DNA of 64,000 nucleotides from Candidatus Vogelbacteria bacterium (lineage in GTDB: Bacteria; Patescibacteriota; Minisyncoccia; Phycocordibacterales; XYD1-FULL-46-19), in NCBI GenBank assembly GCA_021414225.1, contig JAIOOX010000004.1, forward strand, positions 2,206 through 66,205, given 5' to 3'. The notes beneath the pieces are model-generated. The model was not told the DNA's origin and made no database searches. It saw nothing but the letters and a program-made list of their open reading frames with translations. The stretch's first letter is position 1; each line of letters opens with the position of its first letter. Positions 1,746 through 35,876 of this stretch are shown piece by piece. The translations under genes were made by a program, and so were the position numbers.

Positions 1746-3755
<2,010 letters not shown>

Positions 3756-3778
3756 CTACAACAAGCAGAATGTTCAAT

Positions 3779-4342
3779 CTATCTGATTGTTGGTTTTAGA
3801 TCTTGAACCCTCCTTAAAACAAGCCTATTGTTTGATTCACAGTCAGCATTATTATACCCGACAGAGTCAGATTCAAACCCATCTATATTGTTTGATACAG
3901 TCACTTTAGCACAAGAATTATCATTAATATCCTGTATCGTAAATTCCCAATTACCATTTTCAGTGTCGCCCGGCGCTAAATCATTTGGACTTATGACTGA
4001 AGTGTCATCCAAGCACATAATTTCTATGTCTGAATCACTTTTAGTAAATACTGAACCTTGAGATTGACCAGTAATTTCATTATAAGAATCTTCAACAAAA
4101 CCAAAACTGCCTTGTTTATTCCAATAACGAGCACAGGCTCGGCCAACGTCAGCCGCATAATAAGCTATCTGAGAACTCTGTCCTACTCCAGACAAAATTA
4201 ATTGTTTAAAAATAATATTTGATAAAATCAAACCACCAATAGCCACTACACTGGCCACTAAAACAGCATAAAGAATCGCAAAACCATTATTATCTTTTTT
4301 GTTATTGTCCAATATCATAACCAGCATTAAATACATAATCAT
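3779..4342 (-). CDS. pilin-like protein, putative minor pilin
   Basis: N-terminal hydrophobic segment after NNGFAILYAV, which is a degenerate prepilin motif. It is the last gene of the minor-pilin operon. Confidence 0.4.
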   Translation of the reverse strand: MIMYLMLVMILDNNKKDNNGFAILYAVLVASVVAIGGLILSNIIFKQLILSGVGQSSQIAYYAADVGRACARYWNKQGSFGFVEDSYNEITGQSQGSVFTKSDSDIEIMCLDDTSVISPNDLAPGDTENGNWEFTIQDINDNSCAKVTVSNNIDGFESDSVGYNNADCESNNRLVLRRVQDLKPTIR

Positions 4343-4880
4343 CTAATATTAATTCTTGTTCAATCATACCTGACTTATTTTTCCAATTAATAGTAACCTC
4401 CACTGGAATAGCCATCTCTTCTCCAGTACTAGAAATAATAGCAGGTAATATTTTTATACTCCTCTTAAATATTGTCTCAGGGAATGACTCTCCATAACCA
4501 TATGGAGCACCAGCTTGTTCTTGAGTCAAATAAGGACAACCATCAGAGTAATTACACGAACCAAAATAAATTTTGTTGGAATCTAAATCAACTTCTCCAT
4601 AGCATTTTGAATTCACACAAGAAGACATATAATCAAGCCATCCTGATGATTCGCCGTCTCCAATTGATTTAATATTAGAGTCCACTTGGTTGATAATTAA
4701 CTCCATACCCTCTTGAGCTAAATAGTAAGCAATGACTTTGTTTTTAATAAACAAACCATCTTCTATCGCCTTAGACATGACACCTAGAGGGATAAGTACC
4801 GCTATTAATAAAATAGTGATCGCCACAAATGTTTCTATTAGAGTAAACCCTTTATCTTTTTTTAGGTTAGGAAATATCAT
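4302..4880 (-). CDS. type IV minor pilin
   Basis: Prepilin N-terminus KGFTLIETFVAITILLIAV with Gly at -1 and Glu at +5. Start overlaps the upstream gene (ATGA). Confidence 0.75.
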   Translation of the reverse strand: MIFPNLKKDKGFTLIETFVAITILLIAVLIPLGVMSKAIEDGLFIKNKVIAYYLAQEGMELIINQVDSNIKSIGDGESSGWLDYMSSCVNSKCYGEVDLDSNKIYFGSCNYSDGCPYLTQEQAGAPYGYGESFPETIFKRSIKILPAIISSTGEEMAIPVEVTINWKNKSGMIEQELILDDYVFNAGYDIGQ

Positions 4881-5419
4881 ATTGATCTATTTCTAAGTGA
4901 AACTGAACTCTGTAAAGTAAAGTCGGTTCTAATCTTAGGTGTAGCCTGAGCCACACCATGGATAACAATAGTAGCTTTTGGTACAGACTGACTAATGTCA
5001 GTATAAATCTCAAAAGTATCTATTGTAACTTCTAGAGAATTCAAAGCAACGCAAGTTTGACTATTTCCAATACACTGATCAACTGTTTTTTTTGCATCAT
5101 TAATTTTATATGTGACTTGTTCCACAGGAGATGAACCACCAAATCGATCGAAAGAAATATCTGTGTAGCAATTAGGTTTACCATTACCACATTCTAAACC
5201 AACCCTCCAATCAGTTCCTTCCCTTAATTCATAAGAGATGGTGTCCATCATAAAGTTTATATTATCCACAACCGCTCGATTAGATTGAATTTTGCGATAA
5301 ATATTCGCCAAAGTGACAAAAGCCACACTAACGACCATGGCCACAATCACAAACAAAGAAACCGAGACCATCATCTCAACTAAAGTAAAACCATTTTTTT
5401 TGTTTTTATCTTTTAACAT
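4877..5419 (-). CDS. type IV minor pilin
   Basis: NGFTLVEMMVSVSLFVIV prepilin motif. Confidence 0.75.
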   Translation of the reverse strand: MLKDKNKKNGFTLVEMMVSVSLFVIVAMVVSVAFVTLANIYRKIQSNRAVVDNINFMMDTISYELREGTDWRVGLECGNGKPNCYTDISFDRFGGSSPVEQVTYKINDAKKTVDQCIGNSQTCVALNSLEVTIDTFEIYTDISQSVPKATIVIHGVAQATPKIRTDFTLQSSVSLRNRSI

Positions 5420-8369: not shown

Positions 8370-8813
8370 CTATGATCCACACACTGTATCCCCAGAACTA
8401 ACCCCAGCGGTGATTGAGCTAGCAGCTTGTGCTCCGGCTGATCCAGTACTATCAACACAGAAAAAATCATTCTCTAATTCTATCTCAGCAGCCCAACTCA
8501 AAGAAGTTGCCCCACTGGCACCACTTTGAGCACAAACAGCTGTACCAACATTTTGATCATTAGCAGCCGCTAATAGTTTACCAACAGTGCCAGCATCACC
8601 ATTACTACAAACATCTATGATGTAATTACCACTAGAATCTACACCTAATTCTGCTTCCGCTCTCATAGAACTCATACTAGCTTTTGCGGAAGATTCTTTG
8701 GCTTTACTTCTAGCTGAACCCAATGATGTCAACACAATTCCTGACAAGATACCAATGATGGCGATCACCACCAAAAGTTCGATCAAGGTGAAACCCTTAT
8801 TTCCTTTAGTCAT
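8370..8813 (-). CDS. pilA: type IV major pilin
   Basis: MTKGNKGFTLIELLVVIAIIGIL prepilin N-terminus. The internal ATG at 8813 is preferred over the ORF-track start at 8912. A strong terminator follows directly. Confidence 0.8.
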   Translation of the reverse strand: MTKGNKGFTLIELLVVIAIIGILSGIVLTSLGSARSKAKESSAKASMSSMRAEAELGVDSSGNYIIDVCSNGDAGTVGKLLAAANDQNVGTAVCAQSGASGATSLSWAAEIELENDFFCVDSTGSAGAQAASSITAGVSSGDTVCGS

Positions 8814-11682: not shown

Positions 11683-13254
11683 TTACAGCTTATTGACCTC
11701 TTCAAACGGAATAATCCCCTGGAATGCCTTAAGCATAGCATCCTCTTTCATAGTCACGAAACCTTTACTTCTAGCATATTGATAAATATCCCCATCAGAC
11801 GGCGAATTTAGAATGATTTTCTCTAGTTCCCGATCCATCTCTAATAACTCAAAAGCGCCGATCCGGCCCTTGGTTCCCGCTGGACAAGTAGCGGTCTTTT
11901 TGGCTTCGTACACTTCATTAGGAATGACAATATCTTTTCTAAATTCTTCTGGTAGGTCTGCAAATTGTTTATCCACCATCATTCTCAAACTAGCATCCAG
12001 TGGCACTTGTTCCTTCTCTTCACAAATAACCGGGATCAAACGCTGACCGATCGCCAATACCAAAGTCGGTGGAATAAGGTAAGGTTCCACACCCATATCA
12101 ATCAGACGAGGGATCACTCCAGCCGCTGTGTTGGTGTGAATAGTAGAGAAAACCAAGTGACCAGTTAGTGAAGCCTGGATCGCCAAGCGGGCTGTCTCTT
12201 TATCGCGAATTTCACCGACCATGATAATGTCCGGATCTTGACGAAGGATCGAACGCAAACCATTAGCAAAAGTATAGTTAATTTCTGGTTGAACCTGAGA
12301 TTGGTTTACTCCCGGAATATCATATTCAATCGGATCTTCTAGACTAACCGCATTATTTTTTTCTTTATCAATCTCGCCCAACATCGAATACAAAGTGGTA
12401 GTTTTACCCGAACCAGTCGGACCAGTTAGTAAAATCAAACCATGAGGCCGAGCGATCGCACGGCGAACAGTTTCTAGGTTGCGATCATTTAGACCCAAAG
12501 AACTAAGAGTTACTAATTTCTTTTCCGGGTCAAGAATACGCATCACCACCTTCTCTCCAAAATAAGTTGGGAAAGTTGAGACACGAAAATCAATCTTTCG
12601 ACCTTCTACTTTGGCAGAAAAACGTCCATCTTGTGGTTTACGTTTTTCATCAAGCTTCATGTTGGTTAAAATTTTGATTCGAGCTACCACTGCATCGTGA
12701 ACTTGAAGTGGTAAAAACAAACTAGTATACAAAACACCATCCACTCGAAAACGCACCCTTATTTTGTCGGCTATTGGCTCAATGTGAATATCAGAAGCAT
12801 TACCAGAAGTAGCGTGTTGTAAAATCACCCCCACAATCTTCGTGACCGGGGCTTCTTCAATAATATTAGCTTTACCCTCACCTCGCTGAGCTCCGTCTTT
12901 AATCAATTCAGCCGGTGCCCCTTTCTGAGCTTCCACCTCGGCTCCCAATTGATTCAAAGCTTGATCCACTTCACCAGTCAAACCTTCGTAACTTTCGATC
13001 GCCGAGTTAAAATCTTCTTGAGAAATAAGAAAAATCTTCAACGGCATATCTACCTTAGAGGCAATAAACTGAGCCGCATCTCGAGCTTCGATATTTTCAG
13101 GATCAATCATCCCGATTTCCAAAATACCCTCCGTTACCCCAATCGGCAAAAACTTGTAGTAAGAAGCCGAGTCTCTCGGCACATACTTCAAAATATCATA
13201 AGGCAAGCGCTTGCCTCCCAAACTTCGAATGGGAATGTCAGGATTGATAGCCAT
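11683..13254 (-). CDS. pilB: type IV pilus assembly ATPase (GspE family)
   Basis: 523 aa. N-terminal GspE-N region, Walker A LTGPTGSGKTTT, and a tetracysteine-poor C-terminus. Confidence 0.9.
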   Translation of the reverse strand: MAINPDIPIRSLGGKRLPYDILKYVPRDSASYYKFLPIGVTEGILEIGMIDPENIEARDAAQFIASKVDMPLKIFLISQEDFNSAIESYEGLTGEVDQALNQLGAEVEAQKGAPAELIKDGAQRGEGKANIIEEAPVTKIVGVILQHATSGNASDIHIEPIADKIRVRFRVDGVLYTSLFLPLQVHDAVVARIKILTNMKLDEKRKPQDGRFSAKVEGRKIDFRVSTFPTYFGEKVVMRILDPEKKLVTLSSLGLNDRNLETVRRAIARPHGLILLTGPTGSGKTTTLYSMLGEIDKEKNNAVSLEDPIEYDIPGVNQSQVQPEINYTFANGLRSILRQDPDIIMVGEIRDKETARLAIQASLTGHLVFSTIHTNTAAGVIPRLIDMGVEPYLIPPTLVLAIGQRLIPVICEEKEQVPLDASLRMMVDKQFADLPEEFRKDIVIPNEVYEAKKTATCPAGTKGRIGAFELLEMDRELEKIILNSPSDGDIYQYARSKGFVTMKEDAMLKAFQGIIPFEEVNKL

Positions 13255-13276
13255 AATTTAGAATGAAATAAAAACT

Positions 13277-13657
13277 TTATCGAAAGAACTCATTGGCGGG
13301 AATTGGAGTTGTATTAATGTTGCCAGTTCCCAGCGGCGCAAACGGATTAGAACGGCCTTTCTGACGGTCAGGTAAAGGAGTGGTAAAGTCCTGCAAGTCA
13401 CCAGCAAAAGCTGGATTTGAAAAAATAGAACTTTTTAAATCAACCGAGCGTAGATTATTCAATAAAATCACAAACTCAGACGCTTCTGATTGATCACTCC
13501 CAGCCACATTAGAAGCGCCATCAGTGGTCAGTTGTTGAAGACCTAATTGATCATTGGTCTCAGCCTCTCCACCAAAAAAATAAAAATAACCAATAACACC
13601 AACTCCCACCAAGAGGACGACGATCAGAATATTAATAATGTTTTTAGAATTGGACAT
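13277..13657 (-). CDS. small membrane-anchored protein, possible PilP-like pilus assembly component
   Basis: Single N-terminal TM segment. Located between pilO and pilB. Confidence 0.35.
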   Translation of the reverse strand: MSNSKNIINILIVVLLVGVGVIGYFYFFGGEAETNDQLGLQQLTTDGASNVAGSDQSEASEFVILLNNLRSVDLKSSIFSNPAFAGDLQDFTTPLPDRQKGRSNPFAPLGTGNINTTPIPANEFFR

Positions 13658-13661
13658 ATTT

Positions 13662-14315
13662 TTATTTTAGCCAATAAGTAACTAAATCAACTTGGTATTG
13701 ATACTGACCACCAGCCAGCAATTGAGTGGAGGTCGCAGCCGCACCTGTCGCTGGTTGAGCAGAAAAAGATAATCTGGTCACATCTAAAACTCGCAAACTA
13801 CGGGTTAAATCGCCCATAAAAGCTCGCATTTGACTATAAGTACCAATCACCGCAAAAGATAAACCAACTTTTGTGATCGCCGGCTTGTTGACCAATGGCG
13901 ACGTATTGGCGGTGGCATCTACCCGACTAGCAGTACGACCAGTCTTATCTAAATCTGTATTTATTTTAACATCTTTCAATTGCATACCAGATTTTTGAGC
14001 AATAGTATTAACATCAACAATCAATTGAATGTCATCAACTGCATCAGGTAAAAAGACATCTAATTTTTTAATCTGCTCTGGGTCGATCTTTTGATATGTT
14101 GCTTCAAGATCTTGAGCTCGACCTTTAAGAGATTGAATGTCAGCAATAGCTTTATTGAGACTCTCTTTTTCAGCCAAGAGTGATTTAATACCACCACCTA
14201 CCTTCTGAGTAGCATCATCAAAAGTTCTTTGATTGTTAATAATCGGATCTGTTAGGAAATAAAATACCCCGCCGGCGCCGATGATGAGTAAAATTGGAAT
14301 TAAAAATCTGGTCAT
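13662..14315 (-). CDS. pilO: pilus assembly protein PilO-like
   Basis: N-terminal TM segment followed by a coiled-coil. Position directly after pilN. Confidence 0.55.
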   Translation of the reverse strand: MTRFLIPILLIIGAGGVFYFLTDPIINNQRTFDDATQKVGGGIKSLLAEKESLNKAIADIQSLKGRAQDLEATYQKIDPEQIKKLDVFLPDAVDDIQLIVDVNTIAQKSGMQLKDVKINTDLDKTGRTASRVDATANTSPLVNKPAITKVGLSFAVIGTYSQMRAFMGDLTRSLRVLDVTRLSFSAQPATGAAATSTQLLAGGQYQYQVDLVTYWLK

Positions 14316-14317
14316 AA

Positions 14318-15022
14318 TTATTGGTTGGTACTAGTAGCTGATACGGTTGAACTAGCTGACACACCACTATTCACAACCGGCAGCTGATTAATTACCGATT
14401 GTTGTTCAGCTTGATTCTGTTGAACTAAAGCTTGGTAAGAAGTCAGATCTTTGTTTACAGTCAGAGCTAATTTAAAAGTAATATTTCCCTTAGGGTCTAA
14501 ACCTAGGCCAGAGAATACGGCGTTATTTACTAGATCACTAGATTTAAAGGCTTTTAGTTGAACGGCAATATCTTCATAACCTAAAGCTACCCCCTCCAAA
14601 GTGATTCCTTTGTCAGAAAAATCAAATTTTGTATAACGAATAGTCTGTAGAGTTAATTCTTGAATTTTATCAAACAGAGGCAACAAAGTAGCGTGATTGT
14701 TGATAATACCAGAGGCAGCTTTCATTTTGGCATCCAACCTAGCAAAGCGTACTATTCGATCAACCTGTAATTCCCGCTTGTCGTGTTCTAATGATTCTCT
14801 CAAACCACAACCTTGATCGCTACCAGCTTGGCAAGGACGATTGATCGAGTCAGACAAAATATATTGATATCCATAAGCTCCGGCAAAAGCCACTAAAGAT
14901 AAACCAAAAATAACCATAGCAATCAACATCAACAAACCAAGTGACGCTTTAGAAGCCGCTGAATTAGCGTTATTGGTGAAATTTTGTTTAGGAATAAATG
15001 ATGATTGGATACCTTCTGGCAT
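14318..15022 (-). CDS. pilN: pilus assembly protein PilN-like
   Basis: N-terminal TM segment. Position directly after pilM. Confidence 0.55.
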   Translation of the reverse strand: MPEGIQSSFIPKQNFTNNANSAASKASLGLLMLIAMVIFGLSLVAFAGAYGYQYILSDSINRPCQAGSDQGCGLRESLEHDKRELQVDRIVRFARLDAKMKAASGIINNHATLLPLFDKIQELTLQTIRYTKFDFSDKGITLEGVALGYEDIAVQLKAFKSSDLVNNAVFSGLGLDPKGNITFKLALTVNKDLTSYQALVQQNQAEQQSVINQLPVVNSGVSASSTVSATSTNQ

Positions 15023-15034
15023 AGTATAAAAATT

Positions 15035-16162
15035 TTATGATTCTTGCAGAGCCCTCATCGCTACCCCGATAGCAACCGCAAAGCTCGGACCAACTTCGGA
15101 TAGGACTGGTGATAAAAAAGCCGGCGCTTGCACTCGCTCGAAAGGATTACCAAAAACGATTGGAGCATACACATGCTGACTAGCAATCTCTTTGATCCCT
15201 TTTAATGAAGCACCGCCGCCAATTAAAATAACTTTATCAACACTGCGGTTATACTTCTTCTGATAGTTTACCATAACTCTAGTTACTTCTGAAAATATGT
15301 ATTCCACAATTGGACTCAGAGTAGCCGTCAAAGACCCTCCGTCAACTTTTTCCACCAAACCGATTCGACGTTTTATCTCTTCGGCTTTAATAAAAGGAAT
15401 ATTTAATGACCGAGCGATAGCATGAGTAACATCTTGTGATCCTTTACTAATAGTATGAGACAACCGAACCACTCCGTAATCAATAATAACCACTTTCGTC
15501 GAAGCGGCCCCTAGGTCAACGATCACCGTCGCCCCTAAATCATTTTGTAAAGAACTTCGCATAGCACTAAAAGTTTCAATTTCTAAAAATTTAGTTTCCA
15601 CTCCAACAGCGGTACTAATATCTTGAAATTGTTTGATCGTATCTTTGTGGACCGCTACCACCAAAACGTTCGTCATCGCGAGCGCTCCCCCTTTACGTTC
15701 TCGATCCACATCGTCTAAATTTTCTGTAGTTGATTTCGGAATCACCCACCAATCCAAAGCCACTTCGGAGATAGGTACTGGTACATACTTGCGAGCTTCG
15801 ATAGGAATTATCTGGTCCAAATTATTATTGACTGACTCTGGTACTTCAATCGCCACCAATAAACTAGATTTAAGTGGAATAGATAAGCCACCAACTTTGG
15901 TGGTGATGGCTGATTCTCGAAATAAGTCTTTAATCAACTCAGCTGTTTTGGCTGGTGATAGATTTACCGCTTGACCAACTGAGGCACCACCATAAGGACC
16001 AGCTGATAGCTCACCATAGGTTTCCAAAATCATCTGACCTTTGTCTTTTCGCAACTGAACAACTTTAATCGAGGACGAACCAATATCAAGACCAACAACA
16101 CTAGTGTCGCCTTTAGAAAATAAAGAACCTAAAGTAAATAGCTTCGATAGCGGATTATCCAT
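15035..16162 (-). CDS. pilM: pilus assembly ATPase-like actin-fold protein
   Basis: VVGLDIGSSSIKVVQL N-terminus and an FtsA/PilM-like fold. Confidence 0.8.
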   Translation of the reverse strand: MDNPLSKLFTLGSLFSKGDTSVVGLDIGSSSIKVVQLRKDKGQMILETYGELSAGPYGGASVGQAVNLSPAKTAELIKDLFRESAITTKVGGLSIPLKSSLLVAIEVPESVNNNLDQIIPIEARKYVPVPISEVALDWWVIPKSTTENLDDVDRERKGGALAMTNVLVVAVHKDTIKQFQDISTAVGVETKFLEIETFSAMRSSLQNDLGATVIVDLGAASTKVVIIDYGVVRLSHTISKGSQDVTHAIARSLNIPFIKAEEIKRRIGLVEKVDGGSLTATLSPIVEYIFSEVTRVMVNYQKKYNRSVDKVILIGGGASLKGIKEIASQHVYAPIVFGNPFERVQAPAFLSPVLSEVGPSFAVAIGVAMRALQES

Positions 16163-17266: not shown

Positions 17267-17355
17267 GGAGGGGTGGCTGAGTGGCCGAAAGCGCCTCACT
17301 GCTAACGAGGTAGGGGCTTTAAAACCTCTCGCGGGTTCGAATCCCGCCCCCTCCG
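17267..17355 (+). tRNA. tRNA-Ser(GCU), class II with long variable arm
   Basis: Acceptor stem GGAGGGG/CCCCTCC. Anticodon loop CUGCUAA. T-arm GCGGGTTCGAATCCCGC. Confidence 0.8.
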
Positions 17356-17395
17356 CAAAATAAAGAGCTCAAAGCAGGGCTTTGTAGCGACTATA

Positions 17396-17465
17396 TTTTT
17401 GCGAGAGTGGGGCGGGATTCGAACGCCGGAGCGGGCGAAGCCCAAACTCAGCAGAGTTTGTTCGC
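17396..17465 (-). other. inverted, degenerate copy of the tRNA-Ser 3' half followed by a stem-loop; not a foldable tRNA
   Basis: The minus strand reads ggcgttcgaatcccgccccactctcgcaaaaa, compared with gggttcgaatcccgccccctccgcaaaa for the tRNA 3' end. An adjacent 31-nt hairpin lies at 17435-17465. Confidence 0.4.
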
Positions 17466-17539: not shown

Positions 17540-17629
17540 GGAGAGATGGATGAGTGGCTTAAATCAACGGTTTACTAAACCGTCGAACCTTAATTGGTTC
17601 CGTGGGTTCGAATCCCACTCTCTCCGCCA
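17540..17629 (+). tRNA. class II tRNA (long variable arm, CCA encoded); anticodon loop UUACUAA gives apparent anticodon ACU
   Basis: Acceptor stem GGAGAGA/TCTCTCC. T-arm GTGGGTTCGAATCCCAC. A 5-bp variable-arm stem. The genomic 3' end is CCA. Confidence 0.75.
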
Positions 17630-31918: not shown

Positions 31919-32251
31919 CTACTTCTTCGGCTTCTTCTTTTTCGGCTTCGGCTTCGGCTCGGCCGGAGCAACCTCGAGCAAGCAGCCCGAAATGTTGCTC
32001 AATCGGCTAGCCGTCTGGCCACAACCGTCTTCACAGATAAGTTGAAGTTCAACTTTCTGCGGGTGGTTGTTGGCCCGGATCTCGTTGGCGCCGACTAGCC
32101 GTGCACCTGTGACCAGGTACTGCCGACCCTTCTTTCCAACACAACAGTCGCTTTTGAGAGCGTCTGCTGTGAACTGAACCTTCTGGTTCGGTCGGAGAAG
32201 GACCACACCCTTACTTGTCCCCGCCTTCGCTGCTGCCATGACAATACCCAT
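31919..32251 (-). CDS. hypothetical Cys-containing protein with KPKPKKKKPKK tail, on a G+C-richer insert
   Basis: 110-aa ORF. Its base composition is clearly above that of its neighbours. Confidence 0.4.
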   Translation of the reverse strand: MGIVMAAAKAGTSKGVVLLRPNQKVQFTADALKSDCCVGKKGRQYLVTGARLVGANEIRANNHPQKVELQLICEDGCGQTASRLSNISGCLLEVAPAEPKPKPKKKKPKK

Positions 32252-32541: not shown

Positions 32542-32994
32542 TTGTCTATGTCTACTTTTGTGCACAATAAAAAAGTGAATTTCAATTATGAAATTACCGA
32601 CACTTTTGATGCTGGTATCGAACTACTGGGTCCCGAGGTTAAATCACTGCGACTAGGTCAGGCTTCTCTTGATGGGGCGCATGTCATTATTCGAGGGGAA
32701 GAAGCCTATTTAGTCGGCGCCACTATCGCCCCTTACCAGCCCGGCAACAAGGACTCCAAGGTTGATCCGACTCGAACCCGCCGACTTCTGTTGTCCAAAA
32801 AAGATATTGCCGAATTGATCGGAACCGGGGCTCGCAAAGGATTGACATTAGTGCCGATTTCAGTGTATAATAAAGGACGTTACATCAAGCTTTCGATCGG
32901 TGTCGCTCGCGGTAAGAAGAAATTTGATAAACGCGAAACACTGAAGAAAAAGGAAGCTACTAGAGATGTAGCCAGATCGTTGAAAGATTTTTAA
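32542..32994 (+). CDS. smpB: SsrA-binding protein
   Basis: 150 aa with a SmpB-like sequence. tmRNA follows immediately. Confidence 0.9.
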   Translation: MSMSTFVHNKKVNFNYEITDTFDAGIELLGPEVKSLRLGQASLDGAHVIIRGEEAYLVGATIAPYQPGNKDSKVDPTRTRRLLLSKKDIAELIGTGARKGLTLVPISVYNKGRYIKLSIGVARGKKKFDKRETLKKKEATRDVARSLKDF

Positions 32995-32997
32995 TAT

Positions 32998-33377
32998 GGG
33001 GATGCCAGTTTAGACGAGAGATTACTGGTGTTCGCGCCAAACGGAGGAGGTTACCTAGCTCCTAAAAAACGGTAACAACCTATGAGTGCAAAAACTGCCT
33101 CAAAAGGAAGTGTGGCTTCGCCATACTCTCCTCTAGCTTTCGCTTTAGCCTAAGCTAGTGCTTGCCCAGATTGTGAGTGGCTGTCTGGACCAAGTATAAT
33201 AGTCGCCAATCTTCGGACTCAAAGTTGTCTTGCTTTGAATCCAAAAACTTAAAGACTCGGCCGGGTGATGCTTTTGTGGCTTTTTGATATCACCTGCTTA
33301 AAAAATTGAAAGGCACTATGTTTGGTAGAAACGCTCATCATACCCTCCCGGACGTGGGTTCAATCCCGCCATCTCCA
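32998..33377 (+). ncRNA. ssrA: tmRNA (SsrA)
   Basis: The 5' GGGGATG pairs with the 3' CATCTCC. The 3' tRNA-like end GGACGTGGGTTCAATCCCGCCATCTCCA resembles the canonical tmRNA terminus. An internal tag ORF ...PLAFALA* stops at 33151-33153. Confidence 0.8.
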
Positions 33378-33665
33378 CAAAAATAAGGAACGCAGTGACT
33401 ATATTTTTGTAGGATGCCGCCAGTTGTGCCTAACTGGCGGCGCCACAAATACTATGGGTATTTTCCCGTCAAAGTTTTTTATTTGGCGGCACCACAAAAA
33501 ATAACCAGTGACTTTTTTGTATAATACCGCTAACCACTTACAGTTATCAGCACCACAAGCAATTACCACCTTCATGGGTGGTTTTGTTTTTTGGGGTTGA
33601 CTTCCCCATCTTAACCAGGCATAAATAATACTGGATCAAGTTGCTAACCATAAGGGAATCGTTCC

Positions 33666-34037
33666 ATGCCAAAACGACGTGTCCGTTTTTTGTTTGCGAT
33701 CTGTGGTTGGAGTGTGAACATTATCACCATTCCACCGAGTGGTGTTGTACTGGAACATTTGCACTGGATCAAGGAGGAAGTCTATATCGGTCTGTCGGGA
33801 GTTGGTAAACTGACAATTGACGGCCGGACTACCAAATTCAGTCTCGGCTCGATTCACCACATCCCCACCGGGACCTCTCACGGGTTAACAACCGAAAAAG
33901 GTGTCAGGTTCCTAACCCTCGAGGGCCCAACTTTACCCAATGACACCATTTTTGGACTAAATGGACCCTACCCACCCCGCCCGCCAAGAAGCCCCGCTTC
34001 TGGTCGGCGGGGTTTTCTTTTTAATCTTAATCATTGA
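33666..34037 (+). CDS. cupin-domain protein, on a G+C-rich insert
   Basis: Cupin motifs EHLHWIKEEVYIGLSG and GSIHHIPTGTSHGL. Confidence 0.55.
   Translation: MPKRRVRFLFAICGWSVNIITIPPSGVVLEHLHWIKEEVYIGLSGVGKLTIDGRTTKFSLGSIHHIPTGTSHGLTTEKGVRFLTLEGPTLPNDTIFGLNGPYPPRPPRSPASGRRGFLFNLNH
33990..34023 (+). terminator. intrinsic terminator after the cupin gene
   Basis: gccccgcttctggtcggcggggttttcttttt. Confidence 0.6.
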
Positions 34038-34133
34038 CACAAATAGAAATTTATTGCAGTAATATGACCAGCATAACTAGGTGTTCTAGTTATTTTTGGA
34101 TATAGGTCTTCACAACATAGGAACCAAAGGGAG

Positions 34134-34646
34134 GTGAAAGAAATGGAAAAACATTTCAAGCCATGGCCCAACGCCACCACACAACTACTGTGGGAAATCT
34201 GTCTGGTGCACATCCAGGAGACTGATCCTTTGCCGCTCAACGGCCGGAAAATCCGGCGCCGGGCGGGGCAAATATTCAGCTGGATACGGAAGTTCGACGA
34301 CCAGACCAGTCTTCAAACCTTGATCCTGATCCTGGTTGAAGGACTGAAGGTGGTAGTCGATCGGTGCACCAACGAGGCTCTCAACCTCGATTACCGCCCA
34401 GCCCCCAAACCGATCCCCGAGTCGCTCCAGTCGATCATGCCTGATGAGAGGCTATGGGAAATTTTGTGGCTGATGATGGCTTACAAAATTACCAACACCC
34501 CTATCCTCTGGGGAGACGAAGGTATCAAGGTCATCGCCACCAACCTGACCAACCAACTCACCAGCAATGGTATGCCGGTGAACGAAGATCACACCATCAA
34601 CGTGATCCGAGAACTGTTGGGTCAAGTGGTGACCCAACCTCGCTAA
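34134..34646 (+). CDS. hypothetical protein, G+C-rich
   Basis: 170-aa ORF. A hairpin plus T-run terminator lies at 34751-34785. Confidence 0.4.
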   Translation: MKEMEKHFKPWPNATTQLLWEICLVHIQETDPLPLNGRKIRRRAGQIFSWIRKFDDQTSLQTLILILVEGLKVVVDRCTNEALNLDYRPAPKPIPESLQSIMPDERLWEILWLMMAYKITNTPILWGDEGIKVIATNLTNQLTSNGMPVNEDHTINVIRELLGQVVTQPR

Positions 34647-34889
34647 CATCCCAATCATGGGTGTCCCCTTGATTGGGGCCTAAACGGTAATTCGACCTCC
34701 CGGCTCACGCCGACTTGGTCGAGGATAAGAACGTTCCCTATGATTCACTGCCGGTCGAAGCGCAAGCGCTTCGGCCGGTTTTTCCTTTCCTTAAAAACTT
34801 GACCAAAAATAAATAGCATGTAATAGTATCGTCTGGAGATTCTGGGAAATAGTTCCTGGAATAACGTTTACCTAGAGAGGTTTTCGCAC

Positions 34890-35081
34890 ATGCATAGCAA
34901 CGGTATTGTCGGGGTTAAAGCTAACGGTTTCCAGGCGGGAGACCGGGTGACCCAAAAAGGTGGCGAGAGTGCCTTTGAGGTGCTTACCGCCGTAAGCAAA
35001 GAGGGTAACAAAGTTGCCCTCAAGTCGCTGACCGGCAGCCTCGCGTTCGTGGAGCTGGCCGAGAACTTGGTTCTCGCGTAA
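34890..35081 (+). CDS. small hypothetical protein
   Basis: 63 aa. Preceded by the sigma70-like promoter ttgacc-17-taatag and an AGAGAGG RBS. Followed directly by a terminator at 35101-35138. Confidence 0.4.
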   Translation: MHSNGIVGVKANGFQAGDRVTQKGGESAFEVLTAVSKEGNKVALKSLTGSLAFVELAENLVLA

Positions 35082-35100
35082 CCCAAAACGTTTTTATACA

Positions 35101-35138
35101 CCTCCCCGAGCCACCAGGCCCGGGGAGGATTCTTTTTT
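35101..35138 (+). terminator. intrinsic terminator
   Basis: cctccccgagccaccaggcccggggagg followed by ttctttttt. Confidence 0.6.
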
Positions 35139-35312
35139 ATAAAGAAGCCAAGGGTTTGACCCCGTAGTAGATTTTGGTATTGGTCATAGACCCACTCCGC
35201 CTGTCAGGACGGAGTGATAACAAAATTCACTACCGGGTTTGACTTTTCTCCCAATTTCCCTTACTATTGTTGGGTACAGCCGTCGAATAGACGGTATTAA
35301 TTTACAAGGTTT

Positions 35313-35876
35313 TTGAATAAATACATACGCATCAATAATCAGATAACCGCCAAAGAACTCCGAGTAATAGATGACGAAGGAGGTAATTTGGGAGTTATTT
35401 CGAAAGAAGAAGCTTTGAAAGTCGCTCAGGAGCGAGAAGTGGATTTGATAGAAATATCACCAGCCGCCAATCCCCCAGTAGCTAAACTCATGGACTTCGG
35501 TAAGTGGCAATATCTAGAAAATCGTAAAGATAAACTAGCTAAAGCCAAAAGCCATATTATTGAAACAAAATCCTTGCAGATTAAAATCGGTACCGGTGAG
35601 CACGATCTAGGCTTGAAAGCCAAAAAAACAGGTGAATTCTTAGCTGAAGGTCACCGGGTCAAGATTGAACTATTCTTACCAGGTCGGTCCAAATTTTTGG
35701 AAAAAACCTTCCTAGGTGATAGATTAGAGAGAATCCTAAGACTAATTCCTATCGATTACAAAGTAGCCGAAGGACCAAAACAAGGACCAAAGGGTATTTA
35801 TGTGATCGTCGAGAAAGGTTCAGCCAAAGCCAAAGAAGAAGAAACAATCCAAACAACCAATCATGAAAACCAATAA
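35313..35876 (+). CDS. infC: translation initiation factor IF-3
   Basis: IF3 N- and C-domain sequence. infC-rpmI-rplT synteny. The true start may be an upstream non-ATG codon. Confidence 0.85.
   Translation: MNKYIRINNQITAKELRVIDDEGGNLGVISKEEALKVAQEREVDLIEISPAANPPVAKLMDFGKWQYLENRKDKLAKAKSHIIETKSLQIKIGTGEHDLGLKAKKTGEFLAEGHRVKIELFLPGRSKFLEKTFLGDRLERILRLIPIDYKVAEGPKQGPKGIYVIVEKGSAKAKEEETIQTTNHENQ

Follow-up and report, generated by a model that had tools for sequence, protein, structure and literature searches.

Is the G+C-rich stretch that follows the transfer-messenger RNA (tmRNA) gene, ssrA, in an uncultured member of the Patescibacteria/Paceibacteria, labelled Candidatus Vogelbacteria, an island that was inserted at this gene and, if so, by what means? 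Here, we address this question for a 64,000-nucleotide (nt) stretch of the respective metagenome-assembled genome (hereafter, the window, to which coordinates refer unless another locus is named). An initial annotation of the window had placed such an island at 33378-35300, with a cupin gene, an open reading frame (ORF) of 170 amino acids (aa), denoted orf167 below after its likelier start codon, and a 63-aa gene, orf63. Our comparisons reveal that the ssrA 3′ flank is a hot spot of integration and recombination across the clade, as that annotation had assumed, with gaps of variable size and content, recombinase genes and homology breakpoints at the end of ssrA. The three cargo genes of the window are probably an old accretion in this hot spot that has lost its integration module and attachment (att) sites and is now fixed in the species; the earlier description of the island as old or decayed fits the evidence. 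The repeats between ssrA and the cargo, however, are not the debris of integration but copies, one intact and two decayed, of a structured trailer module that we denote S1.

The full-length ssrA gene occupies positions 32998-33380 of the plus strand, as delimited by Rfam, the tag reading frame and homology breakpoints. ARAGORN made no tmRNA call at this site, whereas Rfam detects the gene (RF00023, 84.5 bits, the gathering score being 47; model positions 1-374). The acceptor stem, GGGGATG/CATCTCC, with its 3′ strand at 33370-33376, includes a G3:U70 pair; 33377 is the discriminator A; instead of an encoded CCA, there is CAA; and the tag reading frame, starting at 33088, reads AKTASKGSVASPYSPLAFALA*. 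The model score, the tRNA-like domain, the G3:U70 pair and the tag frame jointly identify the product as a tmRNA. The gene starts four bases past the stop codon of smpB (32542-32994, plus strand; Pfam SmpB, 163 bits), so that 3 nt separate the two genes; the source pipelines start smpB at 32548 (148 aa). A perfect sigma-70 consensus, TTGACA-18-TATAAT, is located at 32842-32871 in the 3′ part of smpB (12/12 in the promoter scan), ~125 nt 5′ of ssrA, and, judging from its sequence, could be the ssrA promoter.

Across 80 Paceibacteria loci, one genome per species, the common gene order is ftsH (minus strand), smpB, ssrA, a gap, infC-rpmI-rplT, a beta-CASP gene (minus strand) and ndk (minus strand). 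Between smpB and the core gene that comes next (infC or ftsH) lie 495 to 6777 bp, with nine loci being empty, that is, having room for ssrA only, and Pfam searches with 150 gap ORFs yield a heterogeneous accessory assortment, including restriction-modification, SocA/Panacea antitoxins, amidases, helicases and others. Thus, the same pair of core genes encloses unrelated content, which qualifies the site as a core-flanked hot spot of horizontal gene transfer (HGT). The sole recurrent family in the gap is that of serine recombinases (5 ORFs, including three that are full large serine recombinases), and relatives of cupin, orf167 and orf63 are present in none of the 80 loci. In L003, L009, L011, L022, L036, L049 and several other loci, smpB-ssrA is inverted, resulting in the order infC (minus), smpB (plus), ssrA, ftsH (plus), which suggests an ancient inversion with endpoints flanking smpB-ssrA.

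The closest species-level relative, L001 (SmpB 98% identical, ftsH DNA 92.7% and ssrA 98.7%), is particularly informative. Its alignment with the window extends through ftsH, smpB and ssrA and ends at window position 33379, where the gene for a 540-aa large serine recombinase (Resolvase, Recombinase and Zn-ribbon domains; 3615-5237, minus strand) abuts and overlaps ssrA; A+T-rich genes (35% G+C) then extend for at least 7 kb, up to the contig end. Because the last 21 codons of the recombinase gene are read from the strand antisense to the ssrA 3′ end, integration fixes the C-terminus of the protein. Spurious calls of 106-aa ORFs after smpB, in L208, L210 and L211, stem from the same antisense frame. 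L001 also carries a 91-aa GIY-YIG nuclease ORF (2966-3241) in the interval between smpB and ssrA that in the window measures 3 nt. Related recombinases are encoded on the opposite strand, at or just 3′ of ssrA or just after smpB, in L021 (42% identity), L024, L032 and L056.

Further evidence of insertion at this point comes from five loci, L045, L087, L122, L135 and L155, in which the tmRNA gene is complete and S1 is displaced 0.2-5 kb downstream. Just 5′ of the displaced S1, the ssrA end is directly repeated over 13-16 nt in L087 and L155, and others of the displaced copies are preceded by a conserved GGTTCYAAC-N15-TCCA. The displacement implies that the integrated DNA of the clade sits between ssrA and S1. 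A group I intron in the tmRNA T-loop was considered as the source of the partial ssrA ends near the displaced S1 copies and was ruled out because complete tmRNA genes are found upstream and no intron model matches.

The same breakpoint recurs among strains. The contigs encoding exactly the SmpB of the window fall into three types, among which the window is the emptiest configuration. L082, L209 and L211 share ssrA and S1 with the window; L082 contains an extra 1.44 kb with two orphan genes (85 and 194 aa) between duplicated copies of a terminator, T0, and lacks window positions 33449-33549. In L208, L210 and L212, homology with the window is lost at 33378, and in L208, it resumes at 33560 (T0, cupin) after 3.1 kb of other single-gene cassettes. 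Overall, the homology of the window with its strain variants stops at 33378/33379. These strain-level breakpoints define a slot, 33379-33559, that varies among conspecific strains, with T0 (33565-33595, plus strand; hairpin 33565-33582), 5′ of the cupin gene, at its right edge. Hence, the cargo lies beyond the variable slot, not directly downstream of ssrA, as originally described.

Where homology is lost at 33378, ssrA is followed by a second type of trailer (L208, 1074-1260; L210, 1623-1815; L212, 894-1050), a terminator hairpin inside an inverted copy of the ssrA 3′ end (..CATCTCCACCC..GGGTGGAGATG, -39.5 kcal/mol). In L208 and L210, the ssrA end is directly repeated over 11 nt, GCCATCTCCAC, ~190 nt downstream, ahead of single-gene cassettes; L212 ends earlier. 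More generally, in 9 of 41 clade loci, the final 8 nt of ssrA recur, exactly and in inverted orientation, within 110 nt downstream.

Each of the extra genes of L082, L208 and L210 is followed by a terminator, a ~90-nt repeat and a conserved promoter spacer. The repeat, TTCAATCCCAY..TTGTG..CCAAGCCCCACRATCGCT, has the 9-mer of the ssrA T-loop at its start and a CCACAA-like sequence at its end; it is found at 8415-8515 and 9335-9435 of L082, at ~2150-2290, 3010-3165 and 4095-4185 of L208, and at 2560-2740 of L210, whereas the window contains no copy of the L082 repeat, which was detected elsewhere in L208 and L210 only. Such an organization evokes a cassette array, maintained by a cassette-specific recombination system that would add single-gene cassettes (promoter, gene, terminator and spacer) beside ssrA, in which cupin, orf167 and orf63 would be the oldest cassettes with eroded spacers, and these three genes are likewise autonomous single-gene units. 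We nevertheless regard such an array as improbable for the window. None of these spacers is present between its genes, only three related contigs are known to contain the spacer repeat, and neither an integron integrase nor attC-like sites were seen; specifically, neither IntI nor an attC-like repeat was found between the cargo genes of the window, which thus lack the attributes of integron cassettes.

Comparison of the window with L082 reveals a mosaic of divergence. The identity is ~93% in ftsH (synonymous divergence, dS, of 0.33) and again ~93% from infC onward (dS 0.34 for infC and ~0.33 for the beta-CASP gene), against 99.7-100% between 32.3 and 33.45 kb, a segment that includes smpB, ssrA and S1 (dS 0.018 for smpB), and ~98.5% in cupin and orf167 (dS 0.044 and 0.017, respectively). 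Given the low dS of the block from smpB to orf167 compared to its flanks, this block was recently exchanged between lineages through homologous recombination. Two hypervariable small genes, both rich in G+C at third codon positions (GC3), bracket the block, namely, on the left, orf110 (a 110-aa ORF between ftsH and smpB, 31919-32251, minus strand, 5′ of smpB; 56-81% identity) and, on the right, orf63 (49-75% identity in the coding sequence). The core genes near orf110 show ~93% DNA identity and a nonsynonymous divergence (dN) of at most 0.006; the Joint Genome Institute called the opposite strand at orf110 (136 aa). In L082, L083 and L084, the orf63 coding region (34884-35083) is swapped for non-aligning DNA encoding a 46%-identical 70-aa homolog, with the promoter and terminator flanks remaining 94-97% identical between the alleles; this is an allelic cassette swap or a case of extreme diversification. 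Cupin and orf167 are 96-98% identical in these three contigs, and the start of the cupin gene is also found in L208, so that the two genes are present, and orf63 is represented by divergent alleles, wherever the sampled conspecific contigs reach. An occurrence of the same genes with native composition in related genomes would have argued against an island; related strains do carry the genes, with the same non-native composition, and more distant relatives lack them.

The cargo genes themselves were correctly recognised in the initial annotation, down to a terminator for each and a clean promoter and ribosome-binding site for the last one. Based on the predicted promoters and terminators, each is a separate transcription unit on the plus strand. 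The first, at 33666-34037, encodes a 123-aa protein with a Cupin_2 domain (Pfam, 35.1 bits against a cut-off of 27.2) and has its own terminator at 33988-34022 (hairpin 33988-34016). Both metal-binding motifs are readable in the translation (G-x4-H-x-H-x4-E-x6-G and G-x5-P-x-G-x2-H), and the domain score together with the two His/Glu motifs assigns the protein to the Cupin superfamily; it matches generic cupins only, with weak matches in the Protein Data Bank (PDB) to quercetin dioxygenase-type and small cupins. The second unit (34034-34788) consists of a promoter, TTGACA..TAATAT (34034-34067), a strong ribosome-binding site, GGAGGTG, a coding sequence at 34143-34646 and a terminator at 34750-34788 (hairpin 34750-34779); the 170-aa ORF spans 34134-34646, and the ATG at 34143 that follows GGAGGTG is the likelier start, yielding 167 aa. 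The third unit (34799-35138) has the promoter TTGACC-17-AATAGT with an upstream TG (34799-34827), the ribosome-binding site AGAGAGG before the ATG, the orf63 coding sequence (34890-35081) and a terminator (35101-35138). Beyond it, the upstream region of infC (35139-35312, plus strand), with the promoter TTGACT-17-TACTAT at 35239-35267, is native and shows core-like identity with L082.

All three cargo proteins are orphans. A word-index search among 5.8e9 proteins retrieved only the proteins themselves or conspecific copies (for cupin, itself and one conspecific copy), and an exhaustive HMMER search of 1.84e9 representative proteins with orf167 retrieved only the query. Homologs outside the lineage are therefore not detectable by sequence, other than Cupin_2 and PDB cupins in the case of the cupin. 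Neither orf167 nor orf63 has a match in Pfam, PHROGs or PADLOC, and the cupin protein and six cargo proteins of the neighbouring strains have none in PHROGs or PADLOC. Single-sequence AlphaFold2 models of orf167 and orf63 are helical but unreliable, with predicted local distance difference test (pLDDT) scores of 49.5 and 58.2, respectively, too poor for a fold search. As a mere guess, the cargo proteins might be small accessory or immunity-type proteins. The dN/dS of cupin relative to L082 is 0.33, based on 8 changes.

The composition of the cargo is atypical. The interval 33381-35300 has a G+C content of 48.7% compared to 41.3% for the window (z = 3.4), a level reached by 2 of 621 sliding windows, and represents the G+C peak of the window. 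The excess is limited to 33600-35140 (50.1%), with the repeat-bearing stretch, 33378-33599, being at the native level (41.4%). Against a background GC3 of 0.36 +/- 0.09, orf167 (0.68, z = 3.7) and orf63 (0.67) are outliers, whereas cupin is not (0.48, z = 1.4); the periodicity of orf167 is coding-like (GC1 0.55, GC2 0.36, GC3 0.68). Thus, of the G+C-rich island as first delineated, the segment 33600-35140 and its two outlier genes hold up, but the repeats do not belong to it, and cupin is no GC3 outlier. The excess is specific to the lineage and does not reflect a general effect of the hot spot: across 44 clade loci, the mean difference in G+C content between gap and flank is -0.01 (sd 0.05), which rules out GC-biased conversion at the hot spot as a general cause, and the gap exceeds the flank by more than 0.05 only in the window, the sister strain L082 and one unrelated locus. 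Unexpectedly, a fourth GC3 outlier lies outside the proposed island, namely, orf110 (0.65, z = 3.3), on the other side of smpB. Because this resident, hypervariable gene is as GC3-rich as the cargo, composition alone is no proof of import, and the G+C richness of the cargo, genuine as it is, tells less about its origin than was originally assumed.

Taken together, these observations lead us to favor, with some confidence, the origin of the cargo as an old accretion in the ssrA hot spot. The last base of ssrA would mark a site-specific recombination hot spot in the Vogelbacteria/Paceibacteria population; in the window, the slot at 33379-33559 is nearly empty, occupied by three S1-type copies ahead of T0; the three G+C-rich orphan genes beyond it (33600-35140) would be the remnant of an old accretion; and the segment, along with smpB and ssrA, would now be exchanged among strains through homologous recombination. 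We infer that the cargo first arrived on an ssrA-targeting serine-recombinase element.

Several observations weigh against such an origin. As initially reported, no integrase is encoded here: serine or tyrosine recombinases are absent from the ORFs of 33378-35312, and a tblastn search of the window with the L001 recombinase retrieves only the tail matching the antisense of ssrA, with no homolog. A direct repeat copying the 3′ end of ssrA, anticipated near the right edge of an island, did not materialise: neither the last 20-31 nt of ssrA nor any part of S1 is repeated in 34601-35320, where the best matches to the ssrA end (11/20, 14/25 and 15/31) are at chance level relative to the whole window. 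Moreover, S1-type modules of native G+C content occupy the 181 nt after ssrA, ahead of T0, with the G+C-rich cargo beginning at ~33600. The window hence lacks three marks of an ssrA-specific island, namely, an att repeat, an adjacent integrase and a cargo that starts at ssrA, whereas a fourth, atypical composition combined with absence from the site in related genomes, points both ways here. The ssrA-S1 junction is intact, unlike in the relatives with visible islands. The recombinase element of L001 is A+T-rich, unlike the cargo, for which no donor is identifiable given that the genes have no homologs elsewhere. The dN/dS of orf167 relative to L082 is ~0.9, a value derived from 8 substitutions only. 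Finally, the positional homologs of orf110 in L001 and L082, with only 38-52% protein identity, each have a GC3 of ~0.65, so high GC3 may be a property of resident hypervariable genes.

These findings feed the principal alternative, under which the cargo was not imported but consists of native, lineage-specific, fast-evolving genes that share the GC3 property with orf110, with the hot spot being merely adjacent. The divergent but uniformly GC3-rich orf110 homologs, the orf63 alleles embedded in nearly identical flanks, the failure to find an att repeat, an integrase or an outside homolog, and the presence of the genes wherever conspecific contigs reach the site are all in line with this possibility. 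We nonetheless find it unlikely, if deserving of serious attention, because the ssrA flank is empty in nine related genomes and the genes are missing from all clade loci; a GC3 almost 2x the genome norm, combined with normal coding periodicity, suggests an origin in a G+C-richer background; and the interval demonstrably gains foreign cassettes in sister strains. We therefore retain the old accretion as the preferred origin of the cargo.

The remaining question is what the repeats downstream of ssrA represent. The repeated motifs and the 10-bp hairpin noted in the initial annotation are real: cagtgact..tttttgta..ccgc occurs at 33393-33422 and 33506-33530, tggcggcRccacaaa at 33435-33449 and 33484-33498, and the hairpin arms are at 33416-33425 and 33432-33441. 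Local alignment of 33373-33448 with 33449-33565 yields a score of 44 compared to 16.9 +/- 3.2 for shuffled sequences (p ~0.0005), a score reached by 0 of 540 genomic background windows (maximum 32). These repeats comprise, on the plus strand, an intact S1 module (33378-33448), supported by a covariance model, covariation and the minimum-free-energy fold; a partial copy, S2 (33449-33497), apparent from the repeat families, the terminator scan and the local alignment, with only the right arm and CCACAA retained, in addition to a weak terminator-like hairpin (33454-33469); and a decayed full-length copy, S3 (33498-33558), identified by the above Smith-Waterman score. All units end in CCACAA, like ssrA itself. 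In the intact S1, helix P1 is formed by 33374-33385 (UCC-A-CAAAAAUA, including the last tmRNA bases) and 33402-33414 (UAUUUUUGU-A-GGA), followed by CCACAA at the module end after a mini-hairpin, hp1 (33390-33396), and a hairpin, hp2 (33415-33442), in agreement with the minimum-free-energy fold. The covariance model R1, built from the S1 alignment, scores 85.9 bits on 33367-33449, and only 12.4 bits (E 0.35) on S3.

S1 is by no means confined to this locus. It recurs 3′ of ssrA in distant genomes with SmpB only 54-59% identical, and its 18-nt box, GACTATAWTTTTGTAGGA, is found in at least 120 metagenome contigs. Among 133 S1 copies examined, 82 are canonical, that is, preceded by CCA-CAAAAWTAA, and 73 of the latter are unique; upstream of these are tmRNA genes in ~32 cases (14 recognised by ARAGORN and 18 by their end signature), tRNA-Ala in 12 (anticodons GGC, TGC and CGC), tRNA-Thr(GGT) in 2 and no recognised gene in 27, with the base 5′ of CCA being T in 69 of the 73. 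In an alignment of 28 copies, P1 comprises 12 bp, in which U70-C71-C72-A73 of the upstream RNA and CAAAAWUA pair with the box UAWUUUUGU-(bulged A)-GGA; hp1 has the mini-hairpin consensus RC-GNA-GY; and hp2, of at least 8 bp, shows compensatory changes in 6 of 8 counted pairs. Paired cells amount to 96.4%, against at most 52% with the partners slid, and the covariation score is 0.296 compared to 0.091 for shuffled alignments (0 of 500 as high); RNAalifold independently arrives at the same structure. At one P1 position that is A/U, with U/A in the box, the 73 copies are concordant without exception (43 and 21 concordant, 0 discordant). With permissive filters and E values of up to 10, the search of 33378-33620 still brought no Rfam family near its gathering score. 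Other contigs contain tandem arrays of S1-type units, which the CCACAA re-created at the module end would permit. S1 is also polymorphic between strains, and L208 covers the stretch from ssrA to cupin without any S1, so the module is not essential.

This distribution bears on the literal form of the original proposal, a discrete island at the 3′ end of ssrA whose att scars would be the repeated motifs. The shared CCACAA end of ssrA and each repeat unit, the reality of the ssrA end as a breakpoint and the S1-type tandem arrays elsewhere would all fit that proposal. However, there are at least 73 distinct contexts in which S1, with its covarying helices, comes after tmRNA, tRNA-Ala or tRNA-Thr; the repeats are found only to the left of the cargo and are of native composition; nothing resembling ssrA or S1 is present at the right edge; and the cargo is located outside the strain-variable slot. 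Because they are not repeats of ssrA, have the native composition and lie all on one side of the cargo, the repeats of the window are not att scars, and the proposal in this form is largely refuted and very improbable.

With about even confidence, we propose that S1 is an undescribed element of ~70 nt that follows a ..UCCA end, in which the box would clamp the 3′ end of the RNA and the first trailer bases, and the module end re-creates CCACAA, with versions of other sequence at tRNA-Ser and in the type-2 trailers. It could be either a cis-acting processing or termination signal of stable RNAs in Patescibacteria or a selfish, TCCA-targeting miniature element that provides a landing pad for ssrA-specific integrases. 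In the window, tRNA-Ser(GCT) at 17267-17356 is followed by an S1-like trailer at 17357-17432 (R1, 19.8 bits, E 0.005). The box of this trailer, UUUUUGC-GAGAG, is complementary to the end of its own tRNA, CUCCG-CAAAA, with G73 pairing with C; the box mirrors the change of the discriminator from A73 to G73 with one from U to C. Beyond the box, the T-arm recurs in inverted orientation, resulting in a predicted helix of more than 30 bp (-63.6 kcal/mol). The tRNA-Ser trailer and the second ssrA trailer type of the sister strains thus appear to use the same clamp principle with different sequences. A second tRNA-Ser, called by ARAGORN at 17540-17629, has the unusual anticodon ACT (A34) and no S1-like trailer.

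Other identities of S1 were considered and discarded. It is not a small peptide gene, there being no conserved start codon, nor a sigma-70 promoter, the hexamer spacing being wrong, nor an integron attC, the hairpin-loop GCCTAAC not being conserved in other copies. As for a phage attP, the two matches to the box in viral contigs appear to be due to chance because their contexts are non-canonical and the CCA-CAAAAWTAA prefix is missing. No recurrent non-core protein is encoded 3′ of the 73 unique S1 copies, and the characteristics of IS200/IS605 miniature elements, a cognate TnpA/TnpB and conserved hairpins recognised by the transposase, are lacking.

Two further differences between the window and L082 were noted. 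L082 contains, between rplT and the beta-CASP gene, a 1038-aa gene without a Pfam match (12365-15481) that is absent from the window. Conversely, the window has ~300 nt (28750-29051) directly 3′ of tRNA-Ile(TAT) (29053-29127, minus strand), where L082 has 16 nt; this segment, another indel beside a tRNA 3′ end, includes an 82-nt match to positions 2130-2211 of bacterial 23S rRNA (Rfam, 50 bits, at the gathering score).

Islands adjacent to tmRNA genes are already well known, and the island itself is an ordinary feature of this kind. Chromosomal HGT hot spots have core genes on both sides and are often adjacent to tRNA or tmRNA genes, and many occupied sites have no recognisable mobile-element genes. 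Likewise, smpB-ssrA and infC bracket variable content here, and exchange by homologous recombination in the flanks is evident from the dS mosaic; unlike in such hot spots, part of the variation is site-specific, as indicated by the exact ssrA-end breakpoints and the serine recombinases of the relatives. What emerges is a tiny symbiont genome that keeps a private slot for orphan genes, which site-specific insertion, along with homologous exchange of the whole smpB-ssrA block, would renew.

The closest parallel is provided by the ssrA islands of Dehalococcoides, in which a 540-residue serine recombinase, DsiB, is encoded on the reverse strand next to attL, islands accrete in tandem, and integrase-less, possibly fixed islands occur (PMC3146451). 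The two systems share a hot spot at the 3′ end of a single-copy ssrA, islands that add to strain-level diversity, a recombinase of ~540 aa on the reverse strand beside ssrA, here in L001, with related ones in L021, L032 and L056, and tandem accretion, with some islands being devoid of an integrase and apparently fixed (PMC3146451). They differ in that the breakpoint in our case is at the very last bases of ssrA rather than in the T-loop, and in that the cargo is located past a structured trailer and consists of three small orphan genes instead of dehalogenase operons. Integration of the Dehalococcoides type, ssrA-targeted and serine recombinase-mediated, is thereby extended to the Candidate Phyla Radiation (CPR).

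The 3′-end clamp of S1, although incidental to our question, is the more useful result. The RNase repertoire of CPR bacteria is assumed to be reduced. If S1 is a processing signal, it bears on the maturation of tmRNA and of tRNAs without an encoded CCA in the CPR; if it is a mobile mini-element, it would represent a new type of element. As in the rRNA leader-trailer helices (PMC11404451, PMC10250234), where flanking precursor sequence pairs with the end of a stable RNA, the S1, type-2 and tRNA-Ser trailers pair with the 3′ end of tmRNA or tRNA. In S1, however, the terminal bases of the RNA itself pair with the trailer, rather than a leader with a trailer, and S1 is a compact module of 70 nt, polymorphic between strains and capable of forming tandems, with a putative processing role. 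S1 also resembles the palindrome-associated transposable elements (PATEs), miniatures of IS200/IS605, in being located 3′ of a short fixed sequence, TCCA, and ending in the same sequence, in having two hairpins, each after AGGA (complementary to UCC), and in its tandem arrays and patchy, polymorphic distribution. Unlike in PATEs, no transposase recurs near S1, and the hairpin stems vary freely, which is not the case for ends recognised by a transposase. Given that the tRNA-Ser trailer covaries with the discriminator base of its own tRNA, a cis-acting RNA fits the evidence better than a PATE.

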